Source: Patescibacteria group bacterium (lineage in GTDB: Bacteria; Patescibacteriota; Minisyncoccia; RBG-13-40-8-A). From it: 64,000 nucleotides of DNA. The position numbers were made by a program, and so were the translations under genes. Shown here in pieces: positions 5,910 to 60,836 of the stretch. The notes under the pieces were generated by a model. It made no database searches, had not been told where the DNA came from, and saw only the letters and a list, made by a program, of their open reading frames with translations. The DNA is taken from assembly GCA_018897295.1 (NCBI GenBank), contig JAHILA010000014.1, positions 3,390-67,389 on the forward strand. The letters are read 5' to 3'. Every line of letters begins with the position of its first letter. The first letter of the stretch is position 1.

Positions 5910-6415
5910 GAAAAATCATATTTGCCAATAAACGAGGTTTTACATTAATGGAAGTGATTGTTGCTGTGGCAATAATTATTACTGCATTGATTTCCTCGTT
6001 AGCATTAATCACTAGCAGTATTTCGAGCATCAGAGAAAATAAGTCAAAAATTATCGCAACAGGCCTTGCCCAAGAGGGCTTGGAAGTTGTTAGAAATATC
6101 AGAGACAATAATTGGCTTATTTATAAAAGAAAAGCTAATGACTGGAGAGACGGATTGTCAGCAGGAAATTATCGGGTTCAATTTGATCAAGAGAGTTTGC
6201 TTTCATTTAGTTCGGTGCCTTTAAAAATAAATACCACAGATGGACGTTATCAGTATTCCAATGGGAATAATACTATTTATTACAGAAAAATAATAATTCA
6301 GGATATAGACGTTGACCAATTTAAAGTAGTCGCTGAAATCAGTTGGCGAGAGGCGGGAAGAGATAATTTAATCAGCGCCGAAACCAGATTTTATAATTGG
6401 TTAAAAGAAGAGTGA
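5906..6415 (+). CDS. Minor pilin (PilV/GspI-like)
   Basis: The N-terminus reads RGFTLMEVIVAVAII. The gene is translationally coupled to its neighbours. Confidence 0.7.
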   Translation: MRKIIFANKRGFTLMEVIVAVAIIITALISSLALITSSISSIRENKSKIIATGLAQEGLEVVRNIRDNNWLIYKRKANDWRDGLSAGNYRVQFDQESLLSFSSVPLKINTTDGRYQYSNGNNTIYYRKIIIQDIDVDQFKVVAEISWREAGRDNLISAETRFYNWLKEE

Positions 6416-9819: not shown

Positions 9820-9846
9820 TTAGCACTCTCGTATAGAGACTGCTAA
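9820..9846 (+). promoter_or_regulatory. CIRCE-like HrcA operator: TTAGCACTC, N9, GACTGCTAA
   Basis: It matches the CIRCE consensus TTAGCACTC-N9-GAGTGCTAA with one mismatch. It lies between the -10 element and the clpB start. Confidence 0.65.
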
Positions 9847-13295: not shown

Positions 13296-13856
13296 ATGGA
13301 TAACATTCCAACAATTGACAGAGAAAAAGAATTGCTTTCTCAGATTGCTTCGGGGGATAAAGAGGCCTTTGGCCAACTTTATGATTTATACGCCCCGAGG
13401 ATTTTCCGTTTCATCCGACTAAAGGTCGGTTCGCAGGTTTTGGCAGAGGACTTATCATCAGAATCTTTCTTAAGAATCTGGGAATATCTTAAAAACCCGG
13501 AGATAAGAATAGAGGAGACATTCCAAGCGCTTTTATATAAAGTTGCCAGAAATCTGATTATTGATTATTACAAGAAAAAAAGCTCGCAGGAGGTTCTTAT
13601 TGGCGATGATTTCCATTTATTTTTAAATGAGGAGCCGGCTAAAGATGAGATTGCTTCCAAAGAAACATCTGACCAGATTCACAGGGCAATAATACGCATC
13701 AAAGAAGAGTATCAGGATGTCTTAATCTTGTATTATATTGATGGGCTTTCAGTACCACAAATCGCCAAAACAATGGATAAATCGCAGGGCGCAATCAGGG
13801 TGTTGATTCATAGAGGTTTGAAGTCCCTAAAAGAGCATTTATCAGAAGAGGAGTAA
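13296..13856 (+). CDS. RNA polymerase sigma-70 factor, ECF (sigma-24) subfamily
   Basis: 186 aa with a region-2 pattern (FRFIRLKV...) and a region-4 HTH (LSVPQIAKTMDKSQGAIRVLIHRGLKSLKE). Confidence 0.85.
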   Translation: MDNIPTIDREKELLSQIASGDKEAFGQLYDLYAPRIFRFIRLKVGSQVLAEDLSSESFLRIWEYLKNPEIRIEETFQALLYKVARNLIIDYYKKKSSQEVLIGDDFHLFLNEEPAKDEIASKETSDQIHRAIIRIKEEYQDVLILYYIDGLSVPQIAKTMDKSQGAIRVLIHRGLKSLKEHLSEEE

Positions 13857-13940
13857 GGGGTGTAATGAAAGTGTAACAAAAGGGGGTAGTTATTCGTCTT
13901 ATATAGTAGAGCGAAACCAGAGCGATTGGAGGGATGATCT

Positions 13941-14714
13941 ATGGATGAATTTATTGTCAAACAACTGAAAAATTTAAGAAAGGTTAGGCCGTCCACTTCT
14001 TGGCTGGAAAGTCAAAGAAGTTTTTTGCTATCTAAAATAGCGCAAAACAAACCAGAGGAAAAGAAAAGCATTTTTACTTTTCCTATTTTTAATATTTCAA
14101 AACTATTCAGGCCAGTATTCGTGGTAGCTATGGTTCTGATTGTTTTTGCAAGTTCGTTGGGAACCATTGGCGTAATCAGCGCTGCCCAGAATAGTTTGCC
14201 TGGAGACGCATTATATGTCTTGAAAACAACATTTGAAAAAACCCAAATGACCTTTGCTTACGGCGACCAGAACAAGGTTGAACTTTCAATAAAATTTGCC
14301 ACCCAGAGAATGGACGAATTTGCGCAAGTGGCAAGCAAGCCGGAAAAAAGAGATGATATTGAAAAAACAGTTCAAAATTTAAATGCGCAGTTAGTTACTG
14401 TTCAGGAAAATATGGATAAATTAAAAGACAAGAACTCCGAGAAAGCAGCTGAAGTGGCGAGATTAATCAGCAACCAAACTAATTCTTATAAAGAGACATT
14501 AATTAAAACAAGTAATCAATTGGCTTATCTGATGCCGGAAGAAAGCAAGAAAATAAAAGCAGAAATTGACCAAGCATTAATTGAAGTTGACAAAACACAG
14601 GAAAAAGCGGAACAGATAATCAAGACAGAAGAAGATAAAACAGAAGAAACGCCCGTAGAAGAAACAATTATTTCACCTTCTTCAAGCTTTGAAGAAGTTA
14701 ACGAAATAAAATAA
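13941..14714 (+). CDS. Putative anti-sigma / sigma-associated single-pass membrane protein (DUF5667-like)
   Basis: It lies directly downstream of the ECF sigma. It has one TM helix, a PGDALYVLK motif and a coiled-coil, acidic C-terminus. Confidence 0.5.
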   Translation: MDEFIVKQLKNLRKVRPSTSWLESQRSFLLSKIAQNKPEEKKSIFTFPIFNISKLFRPVFVVAMVLIVFASSLGTIGVISAAQNSLPGDALYVLKTTFEKTQMTFAYGDQNKVELSIKFATQRMDEFAQVASKPEKRDDIEKTVQNLNAQLVTVQENMDKLKDKNSEKAAEVARLISNQTNSYKETLIKTSNQLAYLMPEESKKIKAEIDQALIEVDKTQEKAEQIIKTEEDKTEETPVEETIISPSSSFEEVNEIK

Positions 14715-19968: not shown

Positions 19969-21027
19969 ATGGATATTAAGAAAAAAATACTTTTTTTGGT
20001 GACTCAATCCGAGTTTGGCGGAGCCCAGCGCTTTATTTATAATTTGGTAACCAATTTAAATCAGGATAAATATAGTATTGCAGTCGCAGCAGGATTAGAA
20101 GGTGATAATGAAAACGGACTTTTATTTGCTTTAGAGAAAAAAGGGATTGATACAGGACATTTAAGATATCTTAGACGGTCAATTAATCCTTTTTTTGATT
20201 TCTTGGGCGTTATTGAGATTTTAAAATTGATAAAAAAAGAAAAGCCGGATATCTTATTTTTATGCAGTTCCAAAGCAGGATTTTTAGGGAGTTGGGCAGG
20301 AAAAAACAAAATAAAAAAAGTAATTTACAGAATCGGTGGATGGACTTTTAATGACCCTTGGCCAAAATGGAAAAAGAAATTGTATATTTGGATAGAGAAA
20401 ATAAGCGCTGGATGGAAAGATTACATTATCAATAATGCTGAATCAGACAAACAGCAGGCAATAAAAATAGGTATTAAGCCACAAAGGGGAATCTTAACCA
20501 TTTACAATGGAATTGATGCAGATAAACTGAAATTTTTGAATAAAGGAGAAGCAGGAAATTTCCTGCGATTAAATAATTCGGATTTCGTTGTTGGAACTAT
20601 TGCCAATGATTACCCGACTAAGGGATTAAAATACCTAAGAGAAGTCGAAGGAAAATTACAGGATATTAAGCTTGTAATATTGAGCAATATTCCTGACGCG
20701 TATAAATATTTAAAGGCATTTGACATCTTTGTTCTGTCGTCTGTAAAAGAAGGGTTTCCTTGGGTAATTTTAGAAGCAATGTCTGCCGGAGTGCCAATTA
20801 TTGCTACAAAAGTTGGAGCAATACCGGAAATTATCCAAAACAATGAAAATGGCATCTTGATAGAGCCAAAAAGCCCGAAAGCAATTATTGATGCAGTAAA
20901 GTTGTTAATGGATAATAAAGATTTAATGAGGAAATTAGCAATTAATGGCAGAAAAACAGTTATAGAAAAATTTAATCTGGAAAAAATGATTAATAGATAT
21001 GTAGAATTATTCGAATCTACGAATTGA
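19969..21027 (+). CDS. Glycosyltransferase family 4 (GT-B, retaining)
   Basis: The C-terminal EGFPWVILEAMSAGVPIIATKVGAIPEI motif fits the EX7E signature region. Start is set at ATG 19969, just after the upstream stop. The track ORF 19834 is an in-frame upstream extension that overlaps the previous gene. Confidence 0.8.
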   Translation: MDIKKKILFLVTQSEFGGAQRFIYNLVTNLNQDKYSIAVAAGLEGDNENGLLFALEKKGIDTGHLRYLRRSINPFFDFLGVIEILKLIKKEKPDILFLCSSKAGFLGSWAGKNKIKKVIYRIGGWTFNDPWPKWKKKLYIWIEKISAGWKDYIINNAESDKQQAIKIGIKPQRGILTIYNGIDADKLKFLNKGEAGNFLRLNNSDFVVGTIANDYPTKGLKYLREVEGKLQDIKLVILSNIPDAYKYLKAFDIFVLSSVKEGFPWVILEAMSAGVPIIATKVGAIPEIIQNNENGILIEPKSPKAIIDAVKLLMDNKDLMRKLAINGRKTVIEKFNLEKMINRYVELFESTN

Positions 21028-21094
21028 TATGCGAATCTACAAATAATTCGTTGATTCGGATAAATATTCGTATCATTCGGATAATATATTTATG
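21011..21094 (+). repeat. Copy A of a recurrent intergenic cis-element of about 85 bp; forward orientation
   Basis: CGAATCTAC direct repeats with about 20-bp spacing and ATTCGGATA direct repeats with 21-bp spacing. Near-identical copies occur at 21945-22036 (inverted), 26586-26673, 27074-27120 and 28838-28884. Confidence 0.85.
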
Positions 21095-21895
21095 AGGACT
21101 TGTTTTCTCTCAATTGATGTTGAATCCTCCTACGCCCGGACTAAAGTCGGGGCTTCGAAGGACAAGAATCCGTTTGAGTCAGTAGATAAACTTGACTGTA
21201 TTCTTGATATTTTCAGAAAACATAATGTTCCGGCTACCTTGTTTGTGACTGGCGAAGTTTTGGAATATTGCCCTGATTTAGTTAAAAAATGGTCCAAGGA
21301 TTTTGAAATCGGATGCCATAATTATTGGCACGTCCAGCTGGATAAAATTGATTTAGTAGAAAGGGAGAGGCAGGTTAAAAATTTCGTTAATTTATACAAA
21401 GGTATTTTCGGGTTTTCGCCAAAAGGATTCAGGGCGCCGAGAAATGTGATTGATAACCAGCAATTCCCGATTTTAGAAAGATATGATTTTATTTATGATG
21501 CCAGTGTTTTTCCGCGTTACCCCTGGCGTATCGGAGCATATGTCGGATACAGAGGCAGAGCGCCAATTGCGCCGTATTGGCCGAGCAGAAAGAATTACAG
21601 GGAAAAGGGGGACATAAAGATTCTCGAAATTCCCGAAAGTCCGGCTTTGTTCGATGTTCCGTTTGTCGGAACATGGTTAAGGAAACTGGGCGTGAAGTTT
21701 TTTAAATTTATTTTTAAAATAAAAAAGCCGGAATTTATTAGTTTTAGTATGCACTCTTGGGATGGAATTGAGTTTGAAAACGGCAAGAACAGCGGTAAAA
21801 AATATTTAAAACAACTTGATGAAATGCTGGGATTTTTAAAGAAAATAGGGTATAATTTTAAGAGCGGAGAGCAAATTTCATCTGAAATTGCTTGA
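21092..21895 (+). CDS. Polysaccharide deacetylase (carbohydrate esterase family 4, NodB-like)
   Basis: CE4 motifs are present: SIDVE (motif 1 variant), CHNYWH (HxxxH) and FRAPRN (RxPY-like). Confidence 0.65.
   Translation: MRTCFLSIDVESSYARTKVGASKDKNPFESVDKLDCILDIFRKHNVPATLFVTGEVLEYCPDLVKKWSKDFEIGCHNYWHVQLDKIDLVERERQVKNFVNLYKGIFGFSPKGFRAPRNVIDNQQFPILERYDFIYDASVFPRYPWRIGAYVGYRGRAPIAPYWPSRKNYREKGDIKILEIPESPALFDVPFVGTWLRKLGVKFFKFIFKIKKPEFISFSMHSWDGIEFENGKNSGKKYLKQLDEMLGFLKKIGYNFKSGEQISSEIA
21127..21166 (+). repeat. Degenerate in-frame copy of the GC-rich element family inside the CE4 gene
   Basis: cctacgcc...ggggcttcg..gg.caag shares its 5' and 3' signatures with the 62401 copy. Confidence 0.4.
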
Positions 21896-21944
21896 CAGGT
21901 TTTTTTATGCTATAATTAAAAGGTAATAAATAATAATATATTAT

Positions 21945-22036
21945 CCGAATGATACGAATATGTATCCGAATCAACGAATTATTTGTAGATTCGCATATCA
22001 ATTTGTAGATTCGAATAATAAATTCATAAATTTATG
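21945..22036 (-). repeat. Copy B of the recurrent cis-element, reverse complement of copy A. Copies A and B form an inverted repeat of about 80 bp flanking the CE4 gene.
   Basis: The reverse complement matches copy A with about 2 mismatches over about 78 bp. It ends at the ATG of the 22034 gene. Confidence 0.85.
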
Positions 22037-23032
22037 AAAAACAATAAACAATTTCTTAGCGTATTAATAAGCGTTTTAATCTGCGTGTTTGTGTTTGGGG
22101 TAATTGTTTATGCCACAACAACAATCGGAGACAATATTTCCGCAGGCGGGACTTTAAGCGGAACCAATTTTTCAACAAATGATACTTATTACAACACGTT
22201 TGTAGGTACGGGGATAGAAACAACAACCACAGCCAGCTACAATGTATTTGTCGGTTATCGAGCAGGATATTCAAATGATGATGGAGCAGCAGATAGTAAT
22301 ACGGCCGTTGGTTATAATGCCCTTAACCTTAACACCACTGGTGATTCTAATTCGGCAATAGGTTTTTCTGCTCTTGGGAAAAATACTACCGGTATTGCGA
22401 ATTCAGCAATAGGAGTGGGTGCTCTTGGAGGTAATACTATAGGAGGTTATAATACTGCTGTTGGATATATGGCGGGTTATGCTGGAGTTGGAGAATACAA
22501 TAATAATACTCTTGTAGGTTTTAGGGTGGGTTATGGTAGTAGTGGTGTGTTTTCAAATAATACCGTAATGGGTTATGATGCAGGATATAATCTTACAGGA
22601 AATAATAATATTCTTTTTGGATATCAGGCAGGAGACGATTTAACGGCAGGAAGGAATAATATCGTTATTGGATATGATATTGATACTCTTTCTGCCACAG
22701 CAGATAATTATATGAATATTGGAGGATTATTATTTGGAGATTTATCTACTGCCAGCGCCAAGTATCTGGGCATTCTTGATTCTTCGCCCGCTTACACTCT
22801 TTCTGTTGACGGCACTGCATCTGTTTCGGGAACTACATATTTAGGCGATACTTATTTTAGCGGTGTGGTTTCTGCGTCTGATGCGAATGGTATGTTAGTG
22901 GGGGAAGGAATAAGTATCAAGACTGGAATTGCCTCGCCGAGCGGGGCCTGTGGTACAGCTGGAAGTCTTTATCTGGATACAACAGGGGGTATAAGTAGCT
23001 GTGGCACAGATAATAAGTGGGATCCTAAGTAA
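22034..23032 (+). CDS. Secreted repeat protein with Hep_Hag / tail-fibre-like Gly-Asn-Ala repeats; paralogue of the 60837 gene
   Basis: It has a signal peptide and repeats of the form NTAVGYNAL..NTTGDSNSAIGFSALG. The N-terminal about 65 aa and C-terminal about 60 aa are almost identical to the 60837 protein. Confidence 0.7.
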   Translation: MKNNKQFLSVLISVLICVFVFGVIVYATTTIGDNISAGGTLSGTNFSTNDTYYNTFVGTGIETTTTASYNVFVGYRAGYSNDDGAADSNTAVGYNALNLNTTGDSNSAIGFSALGKNTTGIANSAIGVGALGGNTIGGYNTAVGYMAGYAGVGEYNNNTLVGFRVGYGSSGVFSNNTVMGYDAGYNLTGNNNILFGYQAGDDLTAGRNNIVIGYDIDTLSATADNYMNIGGLLFGDLSTASAKYLGILDSSPAYTLSVDGTASVSGTTYLGDTYFSGVVSASDANGMLVGEGISIKTGIASPSGACGTAGSLYLDTTGGISSCGTDNKWDPK

Positions 23033-23075
23033 TTAGGAACTATAAGTTATTAATTTAATTTAATTTGTTTAATTT

Positions 23076-24368
23076 ATGCGCAAAAAAACTTTAACAATAG
23101 TATTTCTCTTGATTTTTACAGTAAGTATAATCAGCTGGCCATTATTGGCTTTAGCTGCTGATGAAGTTAGTTTTAGCGCTGACACTACAATTTTATTAGG
23201 TAATGGTGTATATTTAACCATATTAAATACAGGGGTCTGCGATGCAATCGTCGTTGGCACAAGTACTTTAACCGTTTCTCTTTCTACTAACTCTTCTTTA
23301 GAAATAAGATCATATAGTAAGTACGTATTGAACAATTCCTTGTTTACAACTGATTGCGAGCATAGCCAGAGTTATTCTCGATTAGTACTTACTGGACAAG
23401 CCGTAGCTACGGATTTGGTGATTACTCCCAATACTTCCGCAACCTGTCCTTCTTGGGGAAGTAGTGGCGGTGGAGGTGGCGGGGCTACTACGACTTCTGC
23501 TCAGCCAACTACAACTACTGGTCAAGTAACTGCCACCGCTTCTGGCGGAGGAAAGACAACTTTTATTACCACTGAAACTGCTACGGCCACAGTTGATTTA
23601 CCGGCAAGCGCGGTTACTTCATCTACAAATATAGCAATATCAATAGAAACCAAGGCAACGGTTACGTCTAGTAAACCAGTGCCATCAGGACAAAATGTGG
23701 TGGGCGGATATATCTATAATTTTACTGCTACTGCTGGGAGTACTGCAATAACTACATTTTCCAAAGACATTACACTGACCTTTACTTATACCGATAGCCA
23801 GGTAACAGGGTTAAATGAAGATACATTAAAGGTTTATTATTGGGACGGAAGTAAATGGGCAGCTTTAACTGGAACACTGAATAAAACGAATAACACGATT
23901 ACTGTTTTAACAAATCATTTTACCTATTTCGCAATATTGGGAGATTCGGGTACAACATCAACAACAATGGCTAAACCAGAAGATTATGGATTAAAAGAAG
24001 GAGATTTAATCAGGGCTCAAGGGGATTTTGACATCTTTATTATCAGCCAGTATGGCTATAAAAGATTATTCCTTAATCCGACTATCTTTAATATGTACGG
24101 CCATCTTAATGGAGGATGGAATGCAGTAAAAACCGTATCTACGGCAACCAGAGATGCGTTTATTACTTCTACTCATTATCGCTTTGTAGATGAAGATAAA
24201 GTATATCATCTGGAAGTAACGGGCGAGGATACTGGTACTTTGCATTGGCTGAATATGACTGGAGAGAATTTTTTGGCTCAAGGAGGAAAATCTGAGGATA
24301 TCTTCACTATTAATAAATCAGAATTGGACTGGTATTCTAAAGGCGCTGATATAACTTCCTTAAAATAA
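23076..24368 (+). CDS. Secreted surface protein with a Thr/Gly-rich linker and the shared module at its C-terminus
   Basis: It has a signal peptide, a low-complexity GGGGGATTTSAQPTTTTGQ linker and a C-terminal 125 aa region about 75 % identical to the 59011 protein C-terminus. Confidence 0.7.
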   Translation: MRKKTLTIVFLLIFTVSIISWPLLALAADEVSFSADTTILLGNGVYLTILNTGVCDAIVVGTSTLTVSLSTNSSLEIRSYSKYVLNNSLFTTDCEHSQSYSRLVLTGQAVATDLVITPNTSATCPSWGSSGGGGGGATTTSAQPTTTTGQVTATASGGGKTTFITTETATATVDLPASAVTSSTNIAISIETKATVTSSKPVPSGQNVVGGYIYNFTATAGSTAITTFSKDITLTFTYTDSQVTGLNEDTLKVYYWDGSKWAALTGTLNKTNNTITVLTNHFTYFAILGDSGTTSTTMAKPEDYGLKEGDLIRAQGDFDIFIISQYGYKRLFLNPTIFNMYGHLNGGWNAVKTVSTATRDAFITSTHYRFVDEDKVYHLEVTGEDTGTLHWLNMTGENFLAQGGKSEDIFTINKSELDWYSKGADITSLK

Positions 24369-24428
24369 CATTGATTTGGACCTTCGCTTCTTCCTTGTAG
24401 GAGTTGAGAAGGAATAAAGAGAAAAATA

Positions 24429-24456
24429 TCCCGACATGGGTCGGGACATTTTTCAT
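24429..24456 (+). terminator. Rho-independent terminator
   Basis: TCCCGAC, loop atgg, GTCGGGA, then CATTTTTC. Confidence 0.8.
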
Positions 24457-24507
24457 TGTTTTGGGGTTGTTTTTTTGCTGTGAAAATGCTATTCTTAATA
24501 CAAATAT

Positions 24508-25527
24508 ATGGGTAATTTCCAAGAGCTAAATAAGCCCGAATTTAAGGCATTATTGGATAAAACGCTTTTTAAGACGTTTTTTCATTCTATAGAATGGCAT
24601 GAATTTTTGGAAAAAGAATTTAAGTGGCTAAAATTTGAATATTATTTGTATAAGTATGATGAGGCAATATTGGTTTTTGGGCGGATAAAAACCTGCCTGT
24701 CAACAGGCATGGAAAAGTTAATTTCTTTGCCTTTTTGTGAATATGGCGGACCACTACCACTAAAGGGAAGTATTATGTGGGAAGAATTTACAAGAGATAT
24801 TTTTAAAGAATTTGGTGATAATATTAAAATTAAAATTCATCCGCGGATTTCAGAAATTTTAGGTAATCCGCGCTCTTCAAGTAATTTATCAAGCTATTGG
24901 TTATATCTGGAAAATAAATCAGAACAGGAAATCTGGGAATCTTTACGTAAAACTTTGAGGCAGGAAATCAGAAATGCCAAGGAGCAAGGTTTGGAAATCA
25001 GGGCTTATAAAAACCCAAAAGAACTGAAGAAATTCTACGATTTATATGCGGCTAATTTGAGACAAAAGAAGACCATTCCTTATCCATGGCCCCTGATTCA
25101 ATTTCTATGTCAAAACCCGTCTAGCGAGCTGTTATTGGCCTCTTATAGGGGTAAAATCGTGGGGGGTGCCTTGTTTCTGAAATATAGCTCGCCTCGCGGC
25201 GAAGCGGGTGGATTTATCCATTATTTCTTGAGCGCCTCGGATTACAAATACCATAATTTCGGCATAGCGCACCTTATTTTATGGGAAAAGATAAAGGGTC
25301 TAATTGGCAAAAATATTACTCTTGATTTAGGCGCTTCGCCACAAGGTTCGGATTTGGAAATTTTCAAGCGCGGGTGGGGAGGAACAGAGTGGCCAATTTA
25401 TCAGATTGGAATAAAAAGAACGGAAGAATCTTTCCGTTCATCAAAAATAATCAGATTTATTTGGGGATTATTGCCGAATTTTATAATTAAAAAACTTAGC
25501 CCATACTTGATAAAATACCGTCTGTAA
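24508..25527 (+). CDS. FemAB-family / GNAT (Acetyltransf_6-like) aminoacyl- or acyl-transferase
   Basis: About 340 aa with a FemAB-like tandem-GNAT architecture (IRAYKNPKELKKFYDLYAANLRQKKTIPYPWPLIQFL). This call rests on pattern recognition only. Confidence 0.4.
   Translation: MGNFQELNKPEFKALLDKTLFKTFFHSIEWHEFLEKEFKWLKFEYYLYKYDEAILVFGRIKTCLSTGMEKLISLPFCEYGGPLPLKGSIMWEEFTRDIFKEFGDNIKIKIHPRISEILGNPRSSSNLSSYWLYLENKSEQEIWESLRKTLRQEIRNAKEQGLEIRAYKNPKELKKFYDLYAANLRQKKTIPYPWPLIQFLCQNPSSELLLASYRGKIVGGALFLKYSSPRGEAGGFIHYFLSASDYKYHNFGIAHLILWEKIKGLIGKNITLDLGASPQGSDLEIFKRGWGGTEWPIYQIGIKRTEESFRSSKIIRFIWGLLPNFIIKKLSPYLIKYRL
25187..25210 (+). repeat. Degenerate GC-rich element copy inside the FemAB-like gene
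   Basis: gcctcgcggcgaagcgggtg compares with gcctcgccggcaggcgggtg in the 31489 copy. Confidence 0.4.
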
Positions 25528-26578
25528 TTTTATTAATATCTTTTTCAGTAAACCAGTTTTGAAGAGGGAAATTAATAATGCGTTTTGCAGTTTCGGCAGT
25601 ATTAGGGAATTCGTTAAATAATGGTTTTTGCCAGATACGCGAACAGAAAATCCCTTTCTTTCTTAATTTATTGAATAATTCGTCGCGGTTTGTATTTTTA
25701 GGCACAAGCGCAGATAAATAGGTAAAAGTATTATTTTCAGATTCCTGCTTGTCTGCCGATGAGGCAGGCACCTCAAAACCTATTTCTGTTAATTTCTTTT
25801 GAAAGTATTTTGCCAAGTTGATTCGTTTATTGAGATTGGTTTCAAGATTATCCAGATAGTAATTTACAATTTTTAAACATCCTTTTGATGCCTTTCTTGT
25901 CTCGTCGTAGCCCCGTAGATGCAGGGGCGAAGGCGGATTAATTCTCCTAAACAATTCCGACAATCCAGCCAGCATTGGAAACAACCTCAAAAATTTTACA
26001 ATATTAAATAATCTTGATTTATATTTTGGCAATTCTAATTCGATTTGATTTTTACAAATCAGCATTCCTCCGTTTATAACAGGAAACAATTTAGCAAAGC
26101 TGAAAAATAAAGCATCCCCGAATTTTTCAGGGGACATCGGTGGCGCAATATGCGCGCAATCCTCAATGATTTTTAAATTATATTTTTTGGCGATTCCCAG
26201 GATTCTATCCATTTCAATTGGCAGTCCGTAAGTGTGGCAGATTAAAATAGATTTAGTCAGTGGAGTAATCTTTGACTCAATATCAATAGAATCAGCATGA
26301 AAAGTTTTGAGATTCGTATCCAGATAAACCGGCTTAATATTATATTTTTCTAAAATCGGTTTTAAAATATCACAGATATAGGCAGGCATAATCATTTCAG
26401 AGTTTTCTAGATTCAGCTGTTGTATTGCTAGCCGGAAAGCAGACCTGCCAGAGTTAGTGAAAATAATTTGGTAATCAGGAAAAATCTTAGCTAATTTATT
26501 TTTTAAATCAGCTTCAGAAAATTTTCTGAAGAATACTCGTAAGGGGAATTTTTTAAATTGTGGATGCGCAAAATACAT
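25496..26578 (-). CDS. DegT/DnrJ/EryC1/StrS-family PLP-dependent sugar aminotransferase
   Basis: About 360 aa with a fold-type I layout. A putative PLP lysine sits in FSFAKLFP. It shows the typical DegT N-terminal substrate region and lies in a glycan locus. Confidence 0.6.
   Translation of the reverse strand: MYFAHPQFKKFPLRVFFRKFSEADLKNKLAKIFPDYQIIFTNSGRSAFRLAIQQLNLENSEMIMPAYICDILKPILEKYNIKPVYLDTNLKTFHADSIDIESKITPLTKSILICHTYGLPIEMDRILGIAKKYNLKIIEDCAHIAPPMSPEKFGDALFFSFAKLFPVINGGMLICKNQIELELPKYKSRLFNIVKFLRLFPMLAGLSELFRRINPPSPLHLRGYDETRKASKGCLKIVNYYLDNLETNLNKRINLAKYFQKKLTEIGFEVPASSADKQESENNTFTYLSALVPKNTNRDELFNKLRKKGIFCSRIWQKPLFNEFPNTAETAKRIINFPLQNWFTEKDINKITDGILSSMG
25901..25937 (-). repeat. 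Degenerate GC-rich element copy inside the DegT gene
   Basis: The reverse complement, ccgccttcgcccctgcatctacgggg, shares the 11-mer ccgccttcgcc and cctgc with the 31489 copy. Confidence 0.4.
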
Positions 26579-26585
26579 AATTTTA

Positions 26586-26673
26586 TTATCCGAATCTACA
26601 AATTAATATGCGAATCTACAAATAATTCGTTGATTCGGATACATATTCGTATCATTCGAATAATATATTTATG
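26586..26673 (+). repeat. Copy C of the recurrent cis-element (forward), in a divergent promoter region
   Basis: It is near-identical to copy A and lies between the divergent DegT (-) and GxxExxY (+) genes. Confidence 0.85.
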
Positions 26674-27069
26674 GAAAAAGTTTATAAAGATGTTTTATAT
26701 CCCGAATTATCATATAAAGTTTGTGGTTTATGTTTCAGAATTCATAATGAATTGGGGCGATTTTATAATGAATTGCAATATGCTGATGCGCTCGAGAACT
26801 TATTTAAAATAGAAAAAGTTGAATATAAAAGAGAGATACCATTGCCGCCGTCATTCAATGGTGAAAACGAAAGAAGAAACATTCCAGATTTTATAATACA
26901 AGAAACGATTATTTTAGACTTAAAGGCTAAACGCATTATTACTAAAGACGATTATTATCAAATGAAGAGATATTTGAACGCTTACAATAAAGAACTTGGA
27001 TTAATTGTAAATTTCAGAGAATATTATTTAAGTCCCAAAAGAGTTTTAAGTAAAAATAATTTAAATTAA
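26671..27069 (+). CDS. GxxExxY-family protein
   Basis: 132 aa. The N-terminal LSYKVCGLCFRIHNELGRFYNELQYADAL matches the family signature. This family is often found in exopolysaccharide loci. Confidence 0.6.
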   Translation: MEKVYKDVLYPELSYKVCGLCFRIHNELGRFYNELQYADALENLFKIEKVEYKREIPLPPSFNGENERRNIPDFIIQETIILDLKAKRIITKDDYYQMKRYLNAYNKELGLIVNFREYYLSPKRVLSKNNLN

Positions 27070-27073
27070 TAAG

Positions 27074-27120
27074 CATTCGTTGATTCGGATACATATTCGT
27101 ATCATTCGGATAATACCATG
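27074..27120 (+). repeat. Copy D (right half only) of the recurrent cis-element
   Basis: cattcgttgattcggatacatattcgtatcattcggataata lies immediately upstream of the 27118 ATG. Confidence 0.8.
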
Positions 27121-28278
27121 CGTATTTTGATGCCAATTTTACATTATCCTCCAATAATCGGCGGCTTTGAGATTTTCTCTCAGAATATTGCCGAGAGAAT
27201 CGGCAAAACCGATAATGTTTTTGTTATTACCAGCAGGGTTGCGAATGCGCCCAGCAAAGAAATAAACAACAATTTAAGAATACTCAGAACCTCGCCCTGG
27301 TCGCTGAAAAACCTGTCTTATAGCAAGCCATGGTTTATTGTTGGGGCAATGATATGGATTTTTTTTAAGTCAATTAAATTGATTAAAAAAGAGAAAATAG
27401 AGCTAATCCATGCTCAAGGGTTTTTGAGCGGAATTATCAGTTTGATATTAAAAAAACTGACAAAAGTCCCATATTTACTTACTATTCAATCGGCTGATTT
27501 TAGTGTATACCATCCACGCTTGAATATCAATATCATTAAGGCGATTTATAAAAAGATGGAAAAGGCGGTTTTTAAAAATGCTGATTATTGCCACGCAGTA
27601 AGCAATTATTTGGCAGACCATATAAGGCAATACTATGTGCAGAAAGTTGAGATGATCCCGAATGGAGTTAATTGGGAAAGATTTAGGCCGGATGTTGATA
27701 AATTAAAAACCAGAAAAGAACTTGGGTTTGATGCGGAAAATTTAATTGTTTGCGTTTCGCGGCTGGAGCATAAGAATGGAACGCACGATTTAATTGAATC
27801 GGTAAAATATCTTCAGGATTTTGATTTTAAACTAATGATTTGCGGCAGTGGTTCAGAAAAAGAAAAATTAGAGAAAATGATAAAGGATTTTAACTTGGAA
27901 GACCGAGTTTTCCTTTTGGGGGATATTCTCCATAGTGAATTACCCAAATATGTTGCTTGCGCGGATATTTTTGTCAGGCCGTCTTTAGCAGAGGGATTCG
28001 GGATAGTTTTTTTGGAGGCAATGGCATGCAGTGTTGCGGTTATCGGAACTCCTGTGGGCGGGATACCCGATTTTTTAAAAGATAGAGAAACGGGTCTTTT
28101 CTGTGAGCCGGGAAATCCGAAGGATATTGCCGAAAAGATAAAAAAACTTTTAGCAGACAAAGAATTATATCAAAAACTGACAGTAAATGGTTTGAAAATG
28201 GTTAGGGAAATATATAACTGGGATCAGGTAGTGAGGAAATTAAAAGAGTTATATACTAAAACAATAAATAATAATTAA
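27118..28278 (+). CDS. Glycosyltransferase family 4
   Basis: An AEGFGIVFLEAMACSVAVIGTPVGGIPDFL motif is present. Confidence 0.8.
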   Translation: MRILMPILHYPPIIGGFEIFSQNIAERIGKTDNVFVITSRVANAPSKEINNNLRILRTSPWSLKNLSYSKPWFIVGAMIWIFFKSIKLIKKEKIELIHAQGFLSGIISLILKKLTKVPYLLTIQSADFSVYHPRLNINIIKAIYKKMEKAVFKNADYCHAVSNYLADHIRQYYVQKVEMIPNGVNWERFRPDVDKLKTRKELGFDAENLIVCVSRLEHKNGTHDLIESVKYLQDFDFKLMICGSGSEKEKLEKMIKDFNLEDRVFLLGDILHSELPKYVACADIFVRPSLAEGFGIVFLEAMACSVAVIGTPVGGIPDFLKDRETGLFCEPGNPKDIAEKIKKLLADKELYQKLTVNGLKMVREIYNWDQVVRKLKELYTKTINNN

Positions 28279-28283
28279 GAAGT

Positions 28284-28316
28284 AACCCGCCGCAAGCGCG
28301 AAGCGCAAGCAGGCGG
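28284..28316 (+). repeat. Intergenic GC-rich hairpin element related to the in-frame GC-rich elements
   Basis: cccgccgcaagcgcgaagcgcaagcaggcgggcaag. A CCCGCC...GGCGGG stem encloses GCGC-GAA-GCGC, and the 3' end ggcgggcaag is shared with the 31489 and 62401 copies. Confidence 0.5.
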
Positions 28317-28325
28317 GCAAGAAAT

Positions 28326-28862
28326 ATGAAAAAAGTTATTCCATTTTTAGCAATAGCTTTTGTGGTCATCGGAGCAGCGCTGAGATTTGCTCCGCATTTT
28401 CCGAATTTTGCGCCAATTGCGGCAATGGCATTATTCGGCGGAGTTTATCTTAATAAAAAATATGCCTTGATCGTTCCGATAGTTGCGATATTTGTCAGTG
28501 ATTTGTTTATTGGTTTTTACGATGCCAAATTAATGGCAGGGGTATACTTAAGTTTTATTTTGGTTGGTTTAATCGGATTATTTATTAAGAAACATAAAAA
28601 TATAGGCACAATAATCGGCGGAACTGTTTTAGGTTCTGTTTTGTTTTTTCTGATTACCAATTTTGCTGTTTGGGCGTTCTATTCGTGGTATCCGCACACT
28701 TTAAATGGCTTAAGTCAGTGTTTTACAATGGCATTGCCATTTTTCAGAGGTACGTTAATTGGTGATTTGTTCTATGTCGCAATTCTATTTGGAGTTTATG
28801 AAGTGGTTATAGCTTCGGTTAGAAAAAAACATTTATTAGTAGATTCGAATATTAATTTGTAG
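28326..28862 (+). CDS. Integral membrane protein with 5-6 TM helices; possibly a small-substrate transporter component
   Basis: It is polytopic and hydrophobic with a FAPHFPNFAPIAAMALFGG N-terminus. Its function is not recognised. Confidence 0.3.
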   Translation: MKKVIPFLAIAFVVIGAALRFAPHFPNFAPIAAMALFGGVYLNKKYALIVPIVAIFVSDLFIGFYDAKLMAGVYLSFILVGLIGLFIKKHKNIGTIIGGTVLGSVLFFLITNFAVWAFYSWYPHTLNGLSQCFTMALPFFRGTLIGDLFYVAILFGVYEVVIASVRKKHLLVDSNINL

Positions 28863-28884
28863 ATTCGAATAATATATTTATATG
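28838..28884 (-). repeat. Copy E of the recurrent cis-element (left module inverted, fused to the conserved AATAATATATTTAT end)
   Basis: gtagattcgaatattaatttgtagattcgaataatatatttat lies upstream of the 28882 ATG. Confidence 0.75.
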
Positions 28885-31374: not shown

Positions 31375-32535
31375 ATGAAACTTTTAATCATTTCAGGCGA
31401 TACAGCCTTGGCTCAGGGCAAAAAAGGGCCATTTTATTATGTGTTGGAAGAATTGTCTAAATATTGGGAGAGGATTGATATTATCTGTCCCCGCCTTCGC
31501 CAACCTGCCTCGCCGGCAGGCGGGTGCTTCGGCGGGCAAGCAAAACCATGTGTTCAAAAATTTTTTAATAACGTATATGTGCATAGTTCTAATTTGCCTT
31601 TAATCCTTCAGCCGTGGTTTATTTTTAAAAAAGGAGCAGAGATTTATAAAGAGCAGAAATTTGATTTGTTCACAATTCATAGCTATCCTCCTTTTTATAA
31701 TGATATTGGCGGATTGTGGCTTTACAATAAAATAAAAACCCCTTACTTTTTAGAAGTAATGCATATCACTGGTTATCCCAAAGCAGGGAATTTTAAGGAG
31801 TGGTTTTATAAAATTTTAACTAAATATTTTATAAATTTTTTTTCAAAGAGAGCTAAAGCAATTAGAGTGATTAATCAGATACAAACACCAGAATTTTTGA
31901 AAAAAGCAGGGGTTGATGAGAAAAAGATAAAAATTGCACCGGCATTTTATATCGATTTTGAAGTATTTAAACCCAATGCCGCAGAAAAAAAATATGACTT
32001 GGTTTTTTCCGGTCGATTAGCGAAGAATAAAGGTATATTTTTATTACTGAAAGCAGTGAGAAGTCTCAAATCACAGATTCCAAACATCAAGCTTGTAATT
32101 ATTGGAAGTGGGCCGTTGGAGAAAAGGATCAAGAAATATATTATAAAGAATAAATTAGAAAATAATGTGGAATTTGTCGGTTGGTTGCCGACCATAAATG
32201 ATTTGGCGAGAATTTATAATCAATCAAAAATTTTAGTTATGCCGTCATTTAACGAAGGTGGACCGAGAGTAACCTTAGAAGCAATGGCTTGTAAAGTGCC
32301 GGTTATTACAAGCAGAGTCGGGGTGATGCTGGATATAATTAAGCATGGTGAAAATGGAATATTTATCAAATGGAATGCCGAGGATATTGCTGAGAAGATA
32401 ATTTTATTATTAAAGGACGACAATCTAAGGCAGAAGATAGCTGAAAACGGCTGCCAAACAATCCAACGATTTGAAAGAAAAAAAGTAATTGAAAATTATG
32501 CAAAAATATATCAAGCTTTGCTACGTTCTGCCTGA
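31375..32535 (+). CDS. Glycosyltransferase family 4 carrying an in-frame GC-rich element insertion
   Basis: A NEGGPRVTLEAMACKVPVITSRVGVMLDI motif is present. Start is set at ATG 31375 immediately after the upstream stop; the track 31354 start overlaps the upstream gene. Confidence 0.75.
   Translation: MKLLIISGDTALAQGKKGPFYYVLEELSKYWERIDIICPRLRQPASPAGGCFGGQAKPCVQKFFNNVYVHSSNLPLILQPWFIFKKGAEIYKEQKFDLFTIHSYPPFYNDIGGLWLYNKIKTPYFLEVMHITGYPKAGNFKEWFYKILTKYFINFFSKRAKAIRVINQIQTPEFLKKAGVDEKKIKIAPAFYIDFEVFKPNAAEKKYDLVFSGRLAKNKGIFLLLKAVRSLKSQIPNIKLVIIGSGPLEKRIKKYIIKNKLENNVEFVGWLPTINDLARIYNQSKILVMPSFNEGGPRVTLEAMACKVPVITSRVGVMLDIIKHGENGIFIKWNAEDIAEKIILLLKDDNLRQKIAENGCQTIQRFERKKVIENYAKIYQALLRSA
31489..31548 (+). 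repeat. GC-rich palindromic element of about 57 bp, in-frame within the GT4 gene. It is translated as [20 protein letters not shown].
   Basis: ccccgccttcgccaacctgcctcgccggcaggcgggtgcttcggcgggcaagc is about 93 % identical to 62401-62457. Confidence 0.85.
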
Positions 32536-33610
32536 TTATAATTCCAAAACAGACAGCCATTTTTTCCATCTGTATGAATTTTTGGAAAAGGCGTCTAAAA
32601 AACTGGACATATTTTTAATCGTAGAAAGAAGTAGTAGCAACAAAGAAGATATCGGGAGTGTTATGCCGGATATAAAATTTATTTATATCCAAAAATTTAA
32701 GTTTATCCCTTTTCGCTTTATTGAGAGTTTTATTGCTGTTTTAATCGCCAGAATTAAAGGATATAAAAACTTTTATACCCATTATTGTTATATCGGCGGA
32801 ACCAACGCCGCAATTATATCCAGGGTTTTCGGCGGGAAGTCGTATTATTGGAATTGTGCCATGAATTGGTTGTTTAAGAAAAAAGATTCTTCAAAAATAG
32901 GATATGAATTGTGCTTGAAATGGTCTCATTATCTGGTAACCGGCAGCGCGGGGATGAAGAAAGGATATATTGAACATTATCATCTGAGTCCGGAAAGAGT
33001 TAAAGTAATGCCTAATTGGATAAACCTGGAAAGATTTAAACCGGGAAACTTCCAGCCCAAGGCTGGTCCGCCTCGGGCGGAAAAGACTTTATTATTTATT
33101 CATTGGCTTTCAAAAAGGAAGGGCGCGGATATGATTGTGCCGATAGCAAAACATTTATCCCAAATACTAAATACAAAATACAAAATATTGGTTGCAGGCA
33201 ATGGTCCGTATGGAGATGATTTATTGAAAGAAATAGAGGAAAACAAATTAAAAAAAATTATCGAAGTTTTGGGAGCCATTCCTAATGAAAATATAATTAA
33301 GTATTACGAAAAGACGGATATATTTATCATGCCGTCTATGGAAGAAGGATTTCCGAGAGTGTTGTTGGAAGCAATGGCAATGGGCGTTCCTTATATTGCT
33401 TCCGATATCGGAGCAGTCAGGGAAATTTCTTCGGAAATCGCTCAAAGATTTCTAGTCAGGTCAGGAGACGCCGAAATGTTTGCCCATAAAATAGAAAACT
33501 TAATATCGGACGAAAGGGTATACGAAGATTTCAGAAAAGAAGAATTGCAAAAAATCAAGGAATATTCAATAGATAAAGTGATTGATATATTTGTAAAATT
33601 ATTTAAATGA
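32489..33610 (+). CDS. Glycosyltransferase family 4
   Basis: An EEGFPRVLLEAMAMGVPYIASDIGAVREI motif is present. The start is either 32489 or 32498, and the gene overlaps the upstream gene. Confidence 0.75.
   Translation: MKIMQKYIKLCYVLPDYNSKTDSHFFHLYEFLEKASKKLDIFLIVERSSSNKEDIGSVMPDIKFIYIQKFKFIPFRFIESFIAVLIARIKGYKNFYTHYCYIGGTNAAIISRVFGGKSYYWNCAMNWLFKKKDSSKIGYELCLKWSHYLVTGSAGMKKGYIEHYHLSPERVKVMPNWINLERFKPGNFQPKAGPPRAEKTLLFIHWLSKRKGADMIVPIAKHLSQILNTKYKILVAGNGPYGDDLLKEIEENKLKKIIEVLGAIPNENIIKYYEKTDIFIMPSMEEGFPRVLLEAMAMGVPYIASDIGAVREISSEIAQRFLVRSGDAEMFAHKIENLISDERVYEDFRKEELQKIKEYSIDKVIDIFVKLFK
33051..33081 (+). repeat. Possible degenerate GC-rich element copy in the GT4 gene
   Basis: cccaaggctggtccgcctcgggcgg compares with ccaacctgcctcgccggcaggcggg. 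Confidence 0.3.
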
Positions 33611-35031
33611 AATTAATTCTTACAACTAGTCCTAGAGCAGAAGGCGACTTGGAAAGAAAGGGTCTGCCGTTTTTGGGCATTGGTTATATTGCCGGCTATA
33701 TGGAAAAATTCAGCCATCATCAGGTTGAGATTTTTGATGCTCATACTTATGGTTTGACCGCGTCTGAAGCAGCTGGGAAAATACTGGCTAAAAATCCGGA
33801 TGTTGTTGGTATACATTCTATTACCGACAACAGATTTAAGGCGATTGCTTTGGCGAAGGGACTAAAAAAGGAAAATAAAAATGTAATTGTTTTAATGGGT
33901 GGCCCGCATTTTTCTTTGACAGCGAAAAATGCTTTGGAATTGGTTCCAGAAATAGATTATATTATCAGAGGCGAGGGTGAAAAAGCAATTGTTCAATTAT
34001 TAGATGTTTTGGAAAATAAAGGGGACATTTCAAAAGTTTCAGGATTGGCTTATAGAGATAAAAATGGCCAGATTATAGAAAAACCATTAACTGATTTGAT
34101 AATGAACTTAGATGAGCTTCCAATGCCCGCTTGGCACCTATTTGACCTTAAAGAGTATAACAAGCCCATAGATGGCACAAACGTTCGTTCTGTAGGCGTT
34201 TTAAGCGCCAGGGGATGCCCAAATGTATGCGTCTACTGCGCTAACGCCAGATCAGTACTGAGATTAAGAAGTCCGAAAAATTTCATTGACGAGGTTGAGT
34301 ATTTGCATAAGACATACGGCTATCACGGTTTTGATTTTTGGGACGACACTTTAACCATGGTGAAAAGCCACGTTACGGCTGTTTGTGAAGAAATTATCAA
34401 AAGGAAACTGGATATAATTTGGTATGCCCGGGCAAGGGTTAATACCGTAGACAAAGAATTACTGCAATTAATGGGAAAAGCAGGATGCATCAGAATCAGT
34501 TTTGGTGTTGAATCTGGGAGTCCGAGAATCATAAAAATTATTAAGAAAAACATCACCGTTGAACAAGTGTTGAATGCCGTGCGATGGTCATCGGAAGTCG
34601 GCATGGTAGTGGTTACCAATTTTATGGTTAATTTGCCGGAAGAAACATTAGATGATTTAAAACAAACAATAGGCCTGATGAAAGAATTGAGCAAGATTAA
34701 AAATTCTTATCCCGCTTACGGCTTCACGGTTATTTATCCAGGCACGGAGCTGGAATTGATGGCAAAAGAACGAGGATTGATGCCGAAAGATTTTTCCTGG
34801 AACAGCCCGTACCAGTCGCCAAAATATAAAGTTGCCGGAACCGATCCATCTTTGTTTTATATGGAATGGCCTGGTGCTGAATTGGAGAAAATAAAAGCAA
34901 TTATGGTAAGAGGCTTGGGAATTAAGGGCAATGTTTTTAAAAAAGGATTTAATAAGCTAAGAAAAATAAAATCATTCGGCGAATTGAAAGAATTGGTTAA
35001 AACGGGAATTGATTATTTTTTTAAATTTTAA
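33607..35031 (+). CDS. B12-binding-domain radical SAM enzyme
   Basis: It has a B12-binding N-domain and CPNVCVYC. It is paralogous to the 29937, 36784, 39804, 46357 and 47746 genes. Confidence 0.8.
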   Translation: MKLILTTSPRAEGDLERKGLPFLGIGYIAGYMEKFSHHQVEIFDAHTYGLTASEAAGKILAKNPDVVGIHSITDNRFKAIALAKGLKKENKNVIVLMGGPHFSLTAKNALELVPEIDYIIRGEGEKAIVQLLDVLENKGDISKVSGLAYRDKNGQIIEKPLTDLIMNLDELPMPAWHLFDLKEYNKPIDGTNVRSVGVLSARGCPNVCVYCANARSVLRLRSPKNFIDEVEYLHKTYGYHGFDFWDDTLTMVKSHVTAVCEEIIKRKLDIIWYARARVNTVDKELLQLMGKAGCIRISFGVESGSPRIIKIIKKNITVEQVLNAVRWSSEVGMVVVTNFMVNLPEETLDDLKQTIGLMKELSKIKNSYPAYGFTVIYPGTELELMAKERGLMPKDFSWNSPYQSPKYKVAGTDPSLFYMEWPGAELEKIKAIMVRGLGIKGNVFKKGFNKLRKIKSFGELKELVKTGIDYFFKF

Positions 35032-60813: not shown

Positions 60814-60836
60814 AATAATTAATAAATAAAAAATTT

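Follow-up and report, generated by a model that had tools for sequence, protein, structure and literature searches.

Putative mobile promoters (PMPs) have been defined as upstream sequences of 50-100 bp that are at least 80% identical, precede non-homologous genes within a genome and are sometimes shared between genera (PMC3488235, Matus-Garcia, Nijveen & van Passel 2012). The Correia elements of Neisseria (Correia repeat enclosed elements, CREE, or neisserial miniature insertion sequences, NEMIS) are small, have inverted-repeat ends, are able to give rise to a promoter at either or both of these ends, are polymorphic between strains and alter the expression of neighbouring genes (PMC2649163). 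The doublets of repetitive extragenic palindromic (REP) sequences called REPINs, together with the REP-associated tyrosine transposases (RAYTs), form a third kind of system, in which inverted doublets and singlets persist in the genome with a physically associated gene; a promoter or transcription-factor role has been speculated upon (PMC8049555). Here we describe an 85-bp repeat from a stretch of 64,000 nucleotides of a Patescibacteria group bacterium (assembly GCA_018897295.1, contig JAHILA010000014.1, positions 3,390 to 67,389; hereafter the window; GC content 35%), where it is located in a large glycan-biosynthesis cluster. We consider it reasonably probable, with considerable room for doubt, that this repeat is a mobile, two-armed promoter element of the Patescibacteria.

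The repeat is built from a unit of about 20 bp, ATTYGT-nn(n)-ATTCG-n-ATAAT. Two tandem units, spaced by 20-21 bp and with their ATTCG pentamers 8-9 and 11-12 bp apart, make up an arm that ends in a -10-like NATAAT, and in the full element two arms stand back to back and face outward. The initial annotation had named five places for the repeat in this cluster and had described a left (L) and a right (R) module made of different motifs. A repeat search of the window recovered the copies at these places, and the direct repeats within the modules are real, but both modules carry one and the same unit in opposite orientation, so that the element as a whole is a quasi-palindrome (<-<- ->->). The arms are of two types, R ('GTTGATT...GTATCATT') and L' ('GTAGATT...GTAGATT'). 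Three full copies (A, B and C) and two half copies (D and E) are present in the window (Table 1): a profile of the 41-nt module finds exactly eight modules at these five sites (E-values from 4e-9 to 4e-13) and no match in the other 56 kb. Copies A (21006-21094) and C (26585-26673) are direct repeats of 89 nt with 94% identity, the right half of which recurs in D (27075-27115). Copies B and D share 41 nt that are identical (100%), and A and B (21935-22019) form an inverted repeat of 85 nt with 98% identity and 844 nt between its arms. The two 9-mers named in the initial annotation are more frequent in the window than in dinucleotide shuffles, with 19 occurrences of CGAATCTAC at no more than one mismatch (8.5+/-2.8 in shuffles) and 38 of ATTCGGATA (22+/-5), and neither count was reached in any of 100 shuffles (0/100).

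The copies fit closely between genes. The final 22 nt of the GT4 open reading frame (ORF; stop at 21025-21027) upstream of copy A lie within its left arm, the first 28 nt of copy E overlap the end of the DUF6580 ORF, and copy C takes up all of the 92 bp that separate two divergent genes. It serves the two of them, which adds DegT as a sixth gene to the five of the initial annotation. The R arm of C and copy D are direct repeats that flank the GxxExxY gene. The CE4, GT4 and GxxExxY annotations are backed by Pfam and NCBIfam. Copies A and B were thought to flank the CE4 gene precisely, which they do not, as B sits 43 nt past the CE4 stop. An extended -10-like sequence, TGCTATAAT, is found between this stop and copy B (21908-21916, plus strand) and is conserved in the related locus L037 (related loci are designated by L and a number); it may be an additional promoter, which would place B in a 5' leader.

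When one genome per species and the metagenomes of the Joint Genome Institute (JGI) were scanned with a sequence pattern, the arm turned up in 20 + 58 loci, nearly all of them from Patescibacteria. Individual metagenome-assembled genomes (MAGs) carry several copies on different contigs, with at least eight sites in JAKJED and at least six in JAZDGD under the strict scan; viral contigs gave no arm match. In 604 kb of related DNA, 105 sites hold a total of 157 arms. For 69 of these arms (41/100 when redundancy is removed), an ORF of at least 60 aa begins at +2 to +7, whereas random positions and other ATAATA sites give 4.3% and 3.9% (p = 4e-51 and 2e-29, respectively). The distance between arm and start codon peaks at 5 and 7 nt, and in 70 of 76 cases 3-8 nt separate the end of NATAAT from the ATG. 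Every back-to-back pair has a gene on at least one side (42/42; one side in 40 cases and both in 2), and 27 of the 58 solo-arm sites have one at +2 to +13. The proposal of the initial annotation that the element is tied to gene starts, where it would probably supply the promoter and a near-zero 5' leader, is thus borne out by a tight distance between arm and ATG.

The genes that the arms face have no Shine-Dalgarno (SD) site, nor room for one, whereas other genes of the window have strong SD sites or TTGACA-N17-TATAAT promoters; the arm-driven genes therefore form a distinct class. The NATAAT hexamer starts about 12 nt upstream of the start codon. Leaderless genes are recognised by a -10-like hexamer, with A as its second and T as its sixth base, some 10-12 nt ahead of the start codon and by the lack of an SD site (PMC3160421), and bacterial leaderless genes have been the subject of further papers (PMC4007540, PMC12340547). 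The arms fit this sigma-70 leaderless promoter both in the position of the -10 and in the missing SD site. In the mechanism that we propose, NATAAT would be the -10 box and transcription would begin at the AUG or no more than about 2 nt from it, yielding leaderless mRNAs. The first unit of the arm would act as a weak -35 (TTCGnA, 18-bp spacer), and RNA polymerase or another factor would bind the repeated ATTCG units, among them those that the non-facing arm places at about -45 to -85. L'-type arms pass a promoter scan at 9/12 as TTCGCA-18-AATAAT and R arms do not. The terminal ATAATA is kept in 30 of 38 gene-facing arms versus 20 of 34 non-facing ones, and the non-facing arms are nearly as conserved as the facing ones (median E-values of 1e-9.1 and 1e-9.7, respectively), so that the constraint exceeds a single -10 box.

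Table 1. Copies of the 85-bp element in the window, the nested gene, and junctions that differ between related loci
Feature	Position	Strand	Parts and surroundings	Start codon faced (distance past the arm)
Copy A, full element	21006-21086		L arm 21006-21044, leftward into the 3' end of a GT4 gene; R arm 21046-21086, rightward	R arm: CE4 ATG at 21092 (+5)
Copy B, full element, inverted relative to A	21939-22020		R arm 21939-21979, leftward toward the 3' end of CE4; L'-type arm 21981-22020, rightward	L'-type arm: ATG at 22034 (+13)
Copy C, full element	26584-26665		L' arm 26584-26623; R arm 26625-26665	L' arm: DegT aminotransferase ATG at 26578, minus strand (+5); R arm: GxxExxY ATG at 26671 (+5)
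Copy D, solo R arm	27075-27115	+	Direct duplicate of the R arm of C	GT4 ATG at 27118 (+2)
Copy E, solo L'-type arm	28835-28874	+		GT4 ATG at 28882 (+7)
GxxExxY / PDDEXK_3 gene, 132 aa	26671-27069	+	Between C and D	
Indel relative to L027	28279-28874	+	GC-rich hairpin 28283-28320, DUF6580 gene 28326-28862, arm E	
Empty site, GT4/GT4 junction	32500-32520	+	Solo arm at the orthologous junction of L080 (near 32510)	
Empty site, GT4/radical SAM (rSAM) junction	33600-33612	+	GT4 stop overlaps rSAM start (ATGA, 33607); full element at the orthologous junction of L051	

The element is present or absent at orthologous junctions, in agreement with the behaviour of a miniature inverted-repeat transposable element (MITE) that had been suspected for it. 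Copy A is missing at the GT4/CE4 junction of L008 (JAKJED), where the two genes overlap directly, and a full element found in L008 is missing at the orthologous junction of L043. Two further junctions are empty in the window and filled elsewhere (Table 1). The GT4/rSAM junction is known in three states: with nothing (window), with the element (L051) and with the element, a GxxExxY gene and a second R arm (L015, L054). In L027, two GT4 genes overlap directly, arm E and the DUF6580 gene both being missing. At the empty sites, the operon genes overlap in an intact junction, which makes insertion a more parsimonious explanation than precise deletion. An insertion between overlapping operon genes would turn the downstream gene into a transcription unit of its own, and the genes of the window so affected would be CE4, the gene at 22034, DegT, GxxExxY and two GT4 genes.

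The inverted repeat formed by A and B could also suggest that recombination between them flips 21006-22020 as a phase switch of CE4. Nevertheless, a single orientation is found in all the assemblies that have this CE4, a short Logan contig merely breaks inside the repeats, and there is no invertase nearby. An inversion would moreover leave CE4 behind an R arm, hence with the same expression logic and no switch. As GT4 and CE4 overlap in L008 with no element between them, A and B resemble two insertions that took place separately and in opposite orientation. Neither this junction nor the unchanged arrangement of the other assemblies lends support to the invertible or mobile cassette initially proposed for CE4, and such a switch seems hardly credible to us.

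Other candidate small insertions were observed. In L037 (1665-1706) and L021 (about 6232-6275), the two units of the L' arm of copy B are split by a GC-rich hairpin of 42 nt, GCCTGCCCGACATCGCCTTTGGCTTAGTCAAAAGGCGGGCGG, at a point that corresponds to about 22000-22005 of the window. This hairpin resembles a further small insertion element, unrelated to the first, and would separate the -35 unit from the -10 unit. The hairpin at 28283-28320 (CCCGCC...GGCGGG), directly upstream of DUF6580, could be either a terminator or one more small insertion rich in GC. A second assembly of one contig (GCA_022012975.1, JAKLRE010000002.1; L093) is 43 nt longer than its counterpart in GCA_018895295.1 (131,987 versus 131,944 nt), an excess that comes close to the length of one arm or of the 42-nt hairpin.

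The copies appear to share a common descent. The 14 non-redundant full elements from different loci and genomes have a mean identity of 85% and 57 invariant columns, and each of them pairs one L'-type with one R-type arm. This common make-up, together with an identity of about 85% that includes non-motif positions, speaks for a shared origin of the copies and not for convergent sites. The element is also better conserved than its surroundings: at orthologous sites its nucleotide identity and that of the adjacent gene are 86 versus 75%, 82.5 versus 76% and 80.5 versus 66%, and one arm is 100% identical while its flanks are 80% identical, although these informative comparisons are three hand-picked orthologous pairs and one module pair, a wider survey being dominated by duplicate assemblies. 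Copies C and D are unchanged in L027, which is about 93% identical over the region, and C is 100% identical there. Rearranged forms were observed as well, namely a tandem amplification with four units in a row in L014 (1126-1210) and two L arms in L015 (5887-5972) where L054 has one.

This conservation could be thought to protect a structure in the RNA, the L-R hairpin being a processing site, a stabiliser or a terminator like those of REP sequences and bacterial interspersed mosaic elements (BIMEs) or like the Correia elements cleaved by RNase III. The full copies do fold stably, at -27.4, -24.9 and -19.2 kcal/mol (z-scores of -4.3, -4.4 and -3.3), and full copies are found between co-directional genes. 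Yet, none of 29 pairs shows a compensatory change, the variation in the arms simply losing pairing, and all of 500 shuffles (500/500) scored at least as high as the real elements. Solo arms are unable to form the hairpin, copy C separates divergent genes, which need promoters, and the element has no Rfam match (the gathering scans of the window and eight loci returned tRNAs only; the window has no tRNA or tmRNA genes). The hairpin was therefore rejected as the selected feature, the folds being stable but devoid of covariation, and a role of the element at the RNA level appears very unlikely.

The genes behind the arms in other genomes are diverse. According to Pfam, they encode RpoA, the ribosomal protein S11 (rpsK), GAPDH (gap), Hsp20, YqeY, GtrA, an amidohydrolase, a HAD hydrolase, GT4s, B12-radical SAM enzymes, GxxExxY and, in orthologous position in two MAGs, a ClpB-like AAA+ protein. 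Judging from N-terminal sequences, S17 (rpsQ), ClpP, GrpE-like and HtrA-like proteins, a release factor (prfA-like), FtsE, PilC, a penicillin-binding protein (PBP), MgtC, AsnB and receiver-only response regulators may be added to this list. In a Giovannonibacteria contig, a variant arm, GTAGATTAGTATTAT-N5-6-ATG, stands upstream of nusG and rplK. This heterogeneity speaks against the surface-remodelling regulon that the initial annotation had seen in the window: with rpoA, rpsK, gap, clpB-like, hsp20, yqeY and amidohydrolase genes behind it in related genomes, the element defines no glycan regulon. The window itself has a CIRCE-like operator (controlling inverted repeat of chaperone expression), TTAGCACTC-N9-GACTGCTAA, at 9820-9846, between a -10 sequence, TTGCTATAAT, and the start of clpB at 9855. 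It differs by one mismatch from the HrcA consensus. A ClpB-like gene found in other Patescibacteria MAGs has the two-armed element upstream instead.

The arms could nonetheless be the operator array of a dedicated transcription factor, for instance a winged-helix response regulator, and their spread would then amount to the recruitment of genes to a regulon and not to mobility. Units 20-21 bp apart, which is about two helical turns, the conservation of non-facing arms, as expected if a factor binds four units, and a purifying selection that extends over the whole 40 nt are all in keeping with such an array, as is the presence of several proteostasis genes downstream (ClpB-like and Hsp20 by Pfam; ClpP, GrpE-like and HtrA-like by N-terminal sequence). 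On the other hand, the downstream set mixes ribosomal proteins, rpoA, gap, glycosyltransferases, pilC and ftsE, the shared asymmetric L'/R make-up and the identity of the copies point to common descent, the nested nuclease gene described below is left unexplained and no regulator is linked to the element. The initial suggestion of an OmpR/PhoB operator agrees with the spacing of the units but finds no support in the half-sites, which should recur every 10-11 bp or so and do not, as ATTCG recurs at 8-9 and 11-12 bp. We thus regard an operator array as unlikely. A factor binding ATTCG is possible under a mobile promoter element as well, since the two are not exclusive.

In a subset of loci, the element carries a gene. 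The GxxExxY protein of the window matches PF13366 with 81 bits (cut-off 22) and TIGR04256 with 77 bits (cut-off 35). It has the fold of a PD-(D/E)XK core (alpha-beta-beta-beta-alpha-beta), its catalytic residues E ... PD ... (D/E)xK are invariant, and the mean column identity across 30 homologues is 61%; a sequence search of the PDB with it returned nothing meaningful. The function of this GxxExxY/PDDEXK_3 family is given as 'unknown' (PMC3424549). In 13 of 13 independent contexts, whose proteins are 52-100% identical, the gene is enclosed by an L arm and an R arm: the L units abut its ATG, the R units stand behind its stop, and the R arm leads to the ATG of the next gene. Its orientation relative to the asymmetric arms is constant in all 13, although the loci are unrelated (nusG/rplK, lepA/divIC, zf/murB and several glycan clusters). 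It stands in place of the centre of the quasi-palindrome, which then reads ...CTACAAAT, ATG...stop, ATTCGTTGATTCGG. In a control set of 606 ORFs from arm-bearing loci, only three have an L arm abutting their 5' end and an R arm at their 3' end, all of them GxxExxY (PDDEXK_3), and PDDEXK_3 genes make up 9 of the 21 doubly flanked ORFs (Fisher p = 1e-10, with the caveats of redundancy and ascertainment).

The nesting in 13 of 13 contexts makes the 85-bp element look like the gene-less form of a nuclease-carrying mobile unit. The gene-less L-R form would be a MITE/REPIN-like derivative, or a target, of an L-GxxExxY-R unit, and single genes bracketed by arms (GxxExxY, DUF6580) would move as cassettes, probably by recombination between arms. 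A tentative proposal, to which we give somewhat less than an even chance, is that GxxExxY proteins (PF13366/TIGR04256) are dedicated nucleases that either mobilise the element, as an analogue of RAYT/REPIN, or home into its centre. The protein would in that case be expected to bind or cut specifically where CTACAAAT meets AATTCGTTG in the uninterrupted element. Alternatively, the nuclease may be a passenger, that is to say a small selfish or neutral gene carried along in one lineage of the element, and the element may be spread and homogenised solely by host homologous recombination or gene conversion between promoter copies. DUF6580 and a NUDIX gene also sit between arms, arm duplications flank the cassettes (the R arm of C and copy D) as they would after Campbell-type recombination, no target-site duplication was found and most elements are gene-less, all of which would suit a passenger. 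Nevertheless, the nesting without exception in a fixed orientation at unrelated loci, the invariant catalytic motif and the position of the gene exactly at the quasi-palindromic centre make a passenger somewhat unlikely.

Imperfect palindromes of 80-90 bp that bracket single genes (CE4, GxxExxY, DUF6580), with cassettes that are present or absent, also recall an integron-like cassette array in which the repeats would be attC-type sites. The 64 kb encode no tyrosine recombinase, integrase or transposase, the RYYYAAC/GTTRRRY core sites are replaced by GTTGATT and AATCTAC/AATCAAC, and the repeats stand directly before start codons and are found as single copies in ribosomal-protein operons. An integron was thus ruled out, as both the integrase and the core sites are lacking in the window, and we attach practically no probability to it.

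Several other observations concern these genes. In L097 (3001-3903, nusG/rplK), the L arm is followed by GxxExxY, a NUDIX gene and then a weak R arm, which amounts to an extra cargo inside the element. A Buchananbacteria contig that also has a nested GxxExxY carries a 23S_rRNA_IVP (four-helix-bundle) gene between gatC and gatA (L092:6035-6451), a further case of a small orphan gene inserted alone into a conserved operon. A call of 537 aa in L090/L091 (1331-2944) has the N- and C-terminal domains of a GT4 around a PDDEXK_3 domain that is 29% identical to the window protein, and could reflect either an insertion that interrupts a GT4 gene or the mistaken merging of separate calls. The idea that ATTAG-variant units track one GxxExxY paralogue was discarded, as the variant also precedes other genes in L086.

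A number of points weigh against a mobile promoter element. We infer from spacing and consensus only that the arms are promoters of leaderless mRNAs. The -35 candidate (TTCGCA/TTCGGA, 18-bp spacer) matches at 3-4 of 6 positions, which is weak, and a consensus promoter scan found 41 promoters versus 34+/-6 in shuffles, hence no enrichment. About half of the arms face no gene and stay conserved, which a promoter role alone does not explain. The arms of the DAOSAR MAG lie inside longer repeats and have no start codon behind them. With regard to mobility, the element resembles a MITE in being small, non-coding, multi-copy and provided with terminal inverted repeats, but the fixed-length target-site duplication of MITEs is missing: the four filled/empty junctions show no consistent duplication, a possible one of 11-12 bp being seen at copy A only. 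Insertion is preferred to deletion on grounds of parsimony and has no formal polarisation behind it. As for the nuclease, a PD-(D/E)XK protein of 130 aa is no known transposase and could be a passenger. The loci were picked by a strict sequence pattern, and many of the metagenome contigs are redundant. Finally, all the copies of the window lie inside one glycan cluster, whose genes may be locally co-regulated.

Some features of the window and of related loci lie apart from these questions. In DAOSAR01 (L001, L006, L009, L013, L020), labelled 'Candidatus Pacearchaeota archaeon', the arms are found within a repeat of about 150 nt, AATTTTCAATCAAATTCTAAATTCTAAAC...arm...TTTCACATTCGTACATTCGTA. L020 encodes a bacterial-type prepilin N-terminus, FTLIELLIVIAIIA, so that this MAG is probably a mislabelled bacterium. 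The family-less protein encoded behind copy B (22034-23032) has a paralogue near the end of the window (60820-61744), and the DNA of its L037 orthologue matches 60820-61118 at 85%. A hairpin with a 15-bp stem and T-runs on both strands (24421-24454) stands between the gene that ends at 24368 and the one that starts at 24508, and resembles a bidirectional terminator. Just upstream of the glycan cluster, 13296-14714 encodes a sigma factor of the extracytoplasmic function (ECF) type (Sigma70_r2/r4_2), followed by a DUF5667 protein and a family-less protein of 1213 aa; no link between this region and the element was found.

To our knowledge, almost nothing is known about the transcription signals of the Patescibacteria, or candidate phyla radiation (CPR), organisms that cannot grow alone, and our literature search gave no paper that deals with the motif, with Patescibacteria promoters or leaderless genes, or with the function of GxxExxY. 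The element offers a concrete and testable promoter type, with a predicted start at the AUG, that may be used to annotate transcription units and leaderless genes, and it shows operons split by a putative portable promoter. It also links a large orphan family, GxxExxY/PDDEXK_3, to a specific DNA sequence, so that the function of the family can be tested on an 85-bp substrate. If the nuclease indeed serves the element, the Patescibacteria would carry a domesticated nuclease together with a portable leaderless promoter that splits operons and shuffles single-gene cassettes. In assembly and binning, the repeats account for contig breaks around short genes.

Compared with the systems described above, the element corresponds to the operational definition of the PMPs, as its copies are similar enough (98% between A and B, 94% between A and C, 85% on average over 14 copies) and precede non-homologous genes. 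Nevertheless, PMPs are a purely statistical class, whereas the element has an architecture of four units in two arms, a fixed spacing to the ATG and a nuclease gene, and is conserved across a whole bacterial radiation. Among the systems compared, it works most like a Correia element, although the two are unrelated in sequence. A TA target duplication, an integration host factor (IHF) site and processing by RNase III characterise the Correia elements, for which no cognate enzyme gene is known; the present element has tandem 20-bp units, a start codon within 2-7 nt, no target duplication that could be seen and a PD-(D/E)XK gene nested in a subset of copies. The organisation into doublets with an associated gene is that of REPIN/RAYT, but RAYT is an HUH tyrosine transposase and the nested gene encodes a PD-(D/E)XK nuclease. 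REPINs, moreover, are GC-rich, need their hairpin and usually lie at the 3' ends of genes, whereas the arms abut start codons and show no pairing covariation. The OmpR/PhoB operators resemble the arms in their direct repeats that overlap the -35 region and in units about two helical turns apart; Pho-box sites are, however, 7-bp repeats with a periodicity of about 11 bp, and the element is in addition inverted and has no linked regulator. Homing endonucleases provide a last parallel, with the free-standing seg/mob genes of phage T4 and the PD-(D/E)XK homing enzyme I-Ssp6803I. Seen by analogy, a small nuclease gene that stands between conserved genes, is present or absent at orthologous sites and occupies the centre of a quasi-palindromic sequence found uninterrupted elsewhere would be arranged as a homing gene is, with the difference that the putative target would be a multi-copy promoter element of its own genome, most copies of which are unoccupied. 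Taken together, these comparisons describe the 85-bp repeat as a probable promoter-carrying, MITE/REPIN-like element of the Patescibacteria with a nested PD-(D/E)XK gene.

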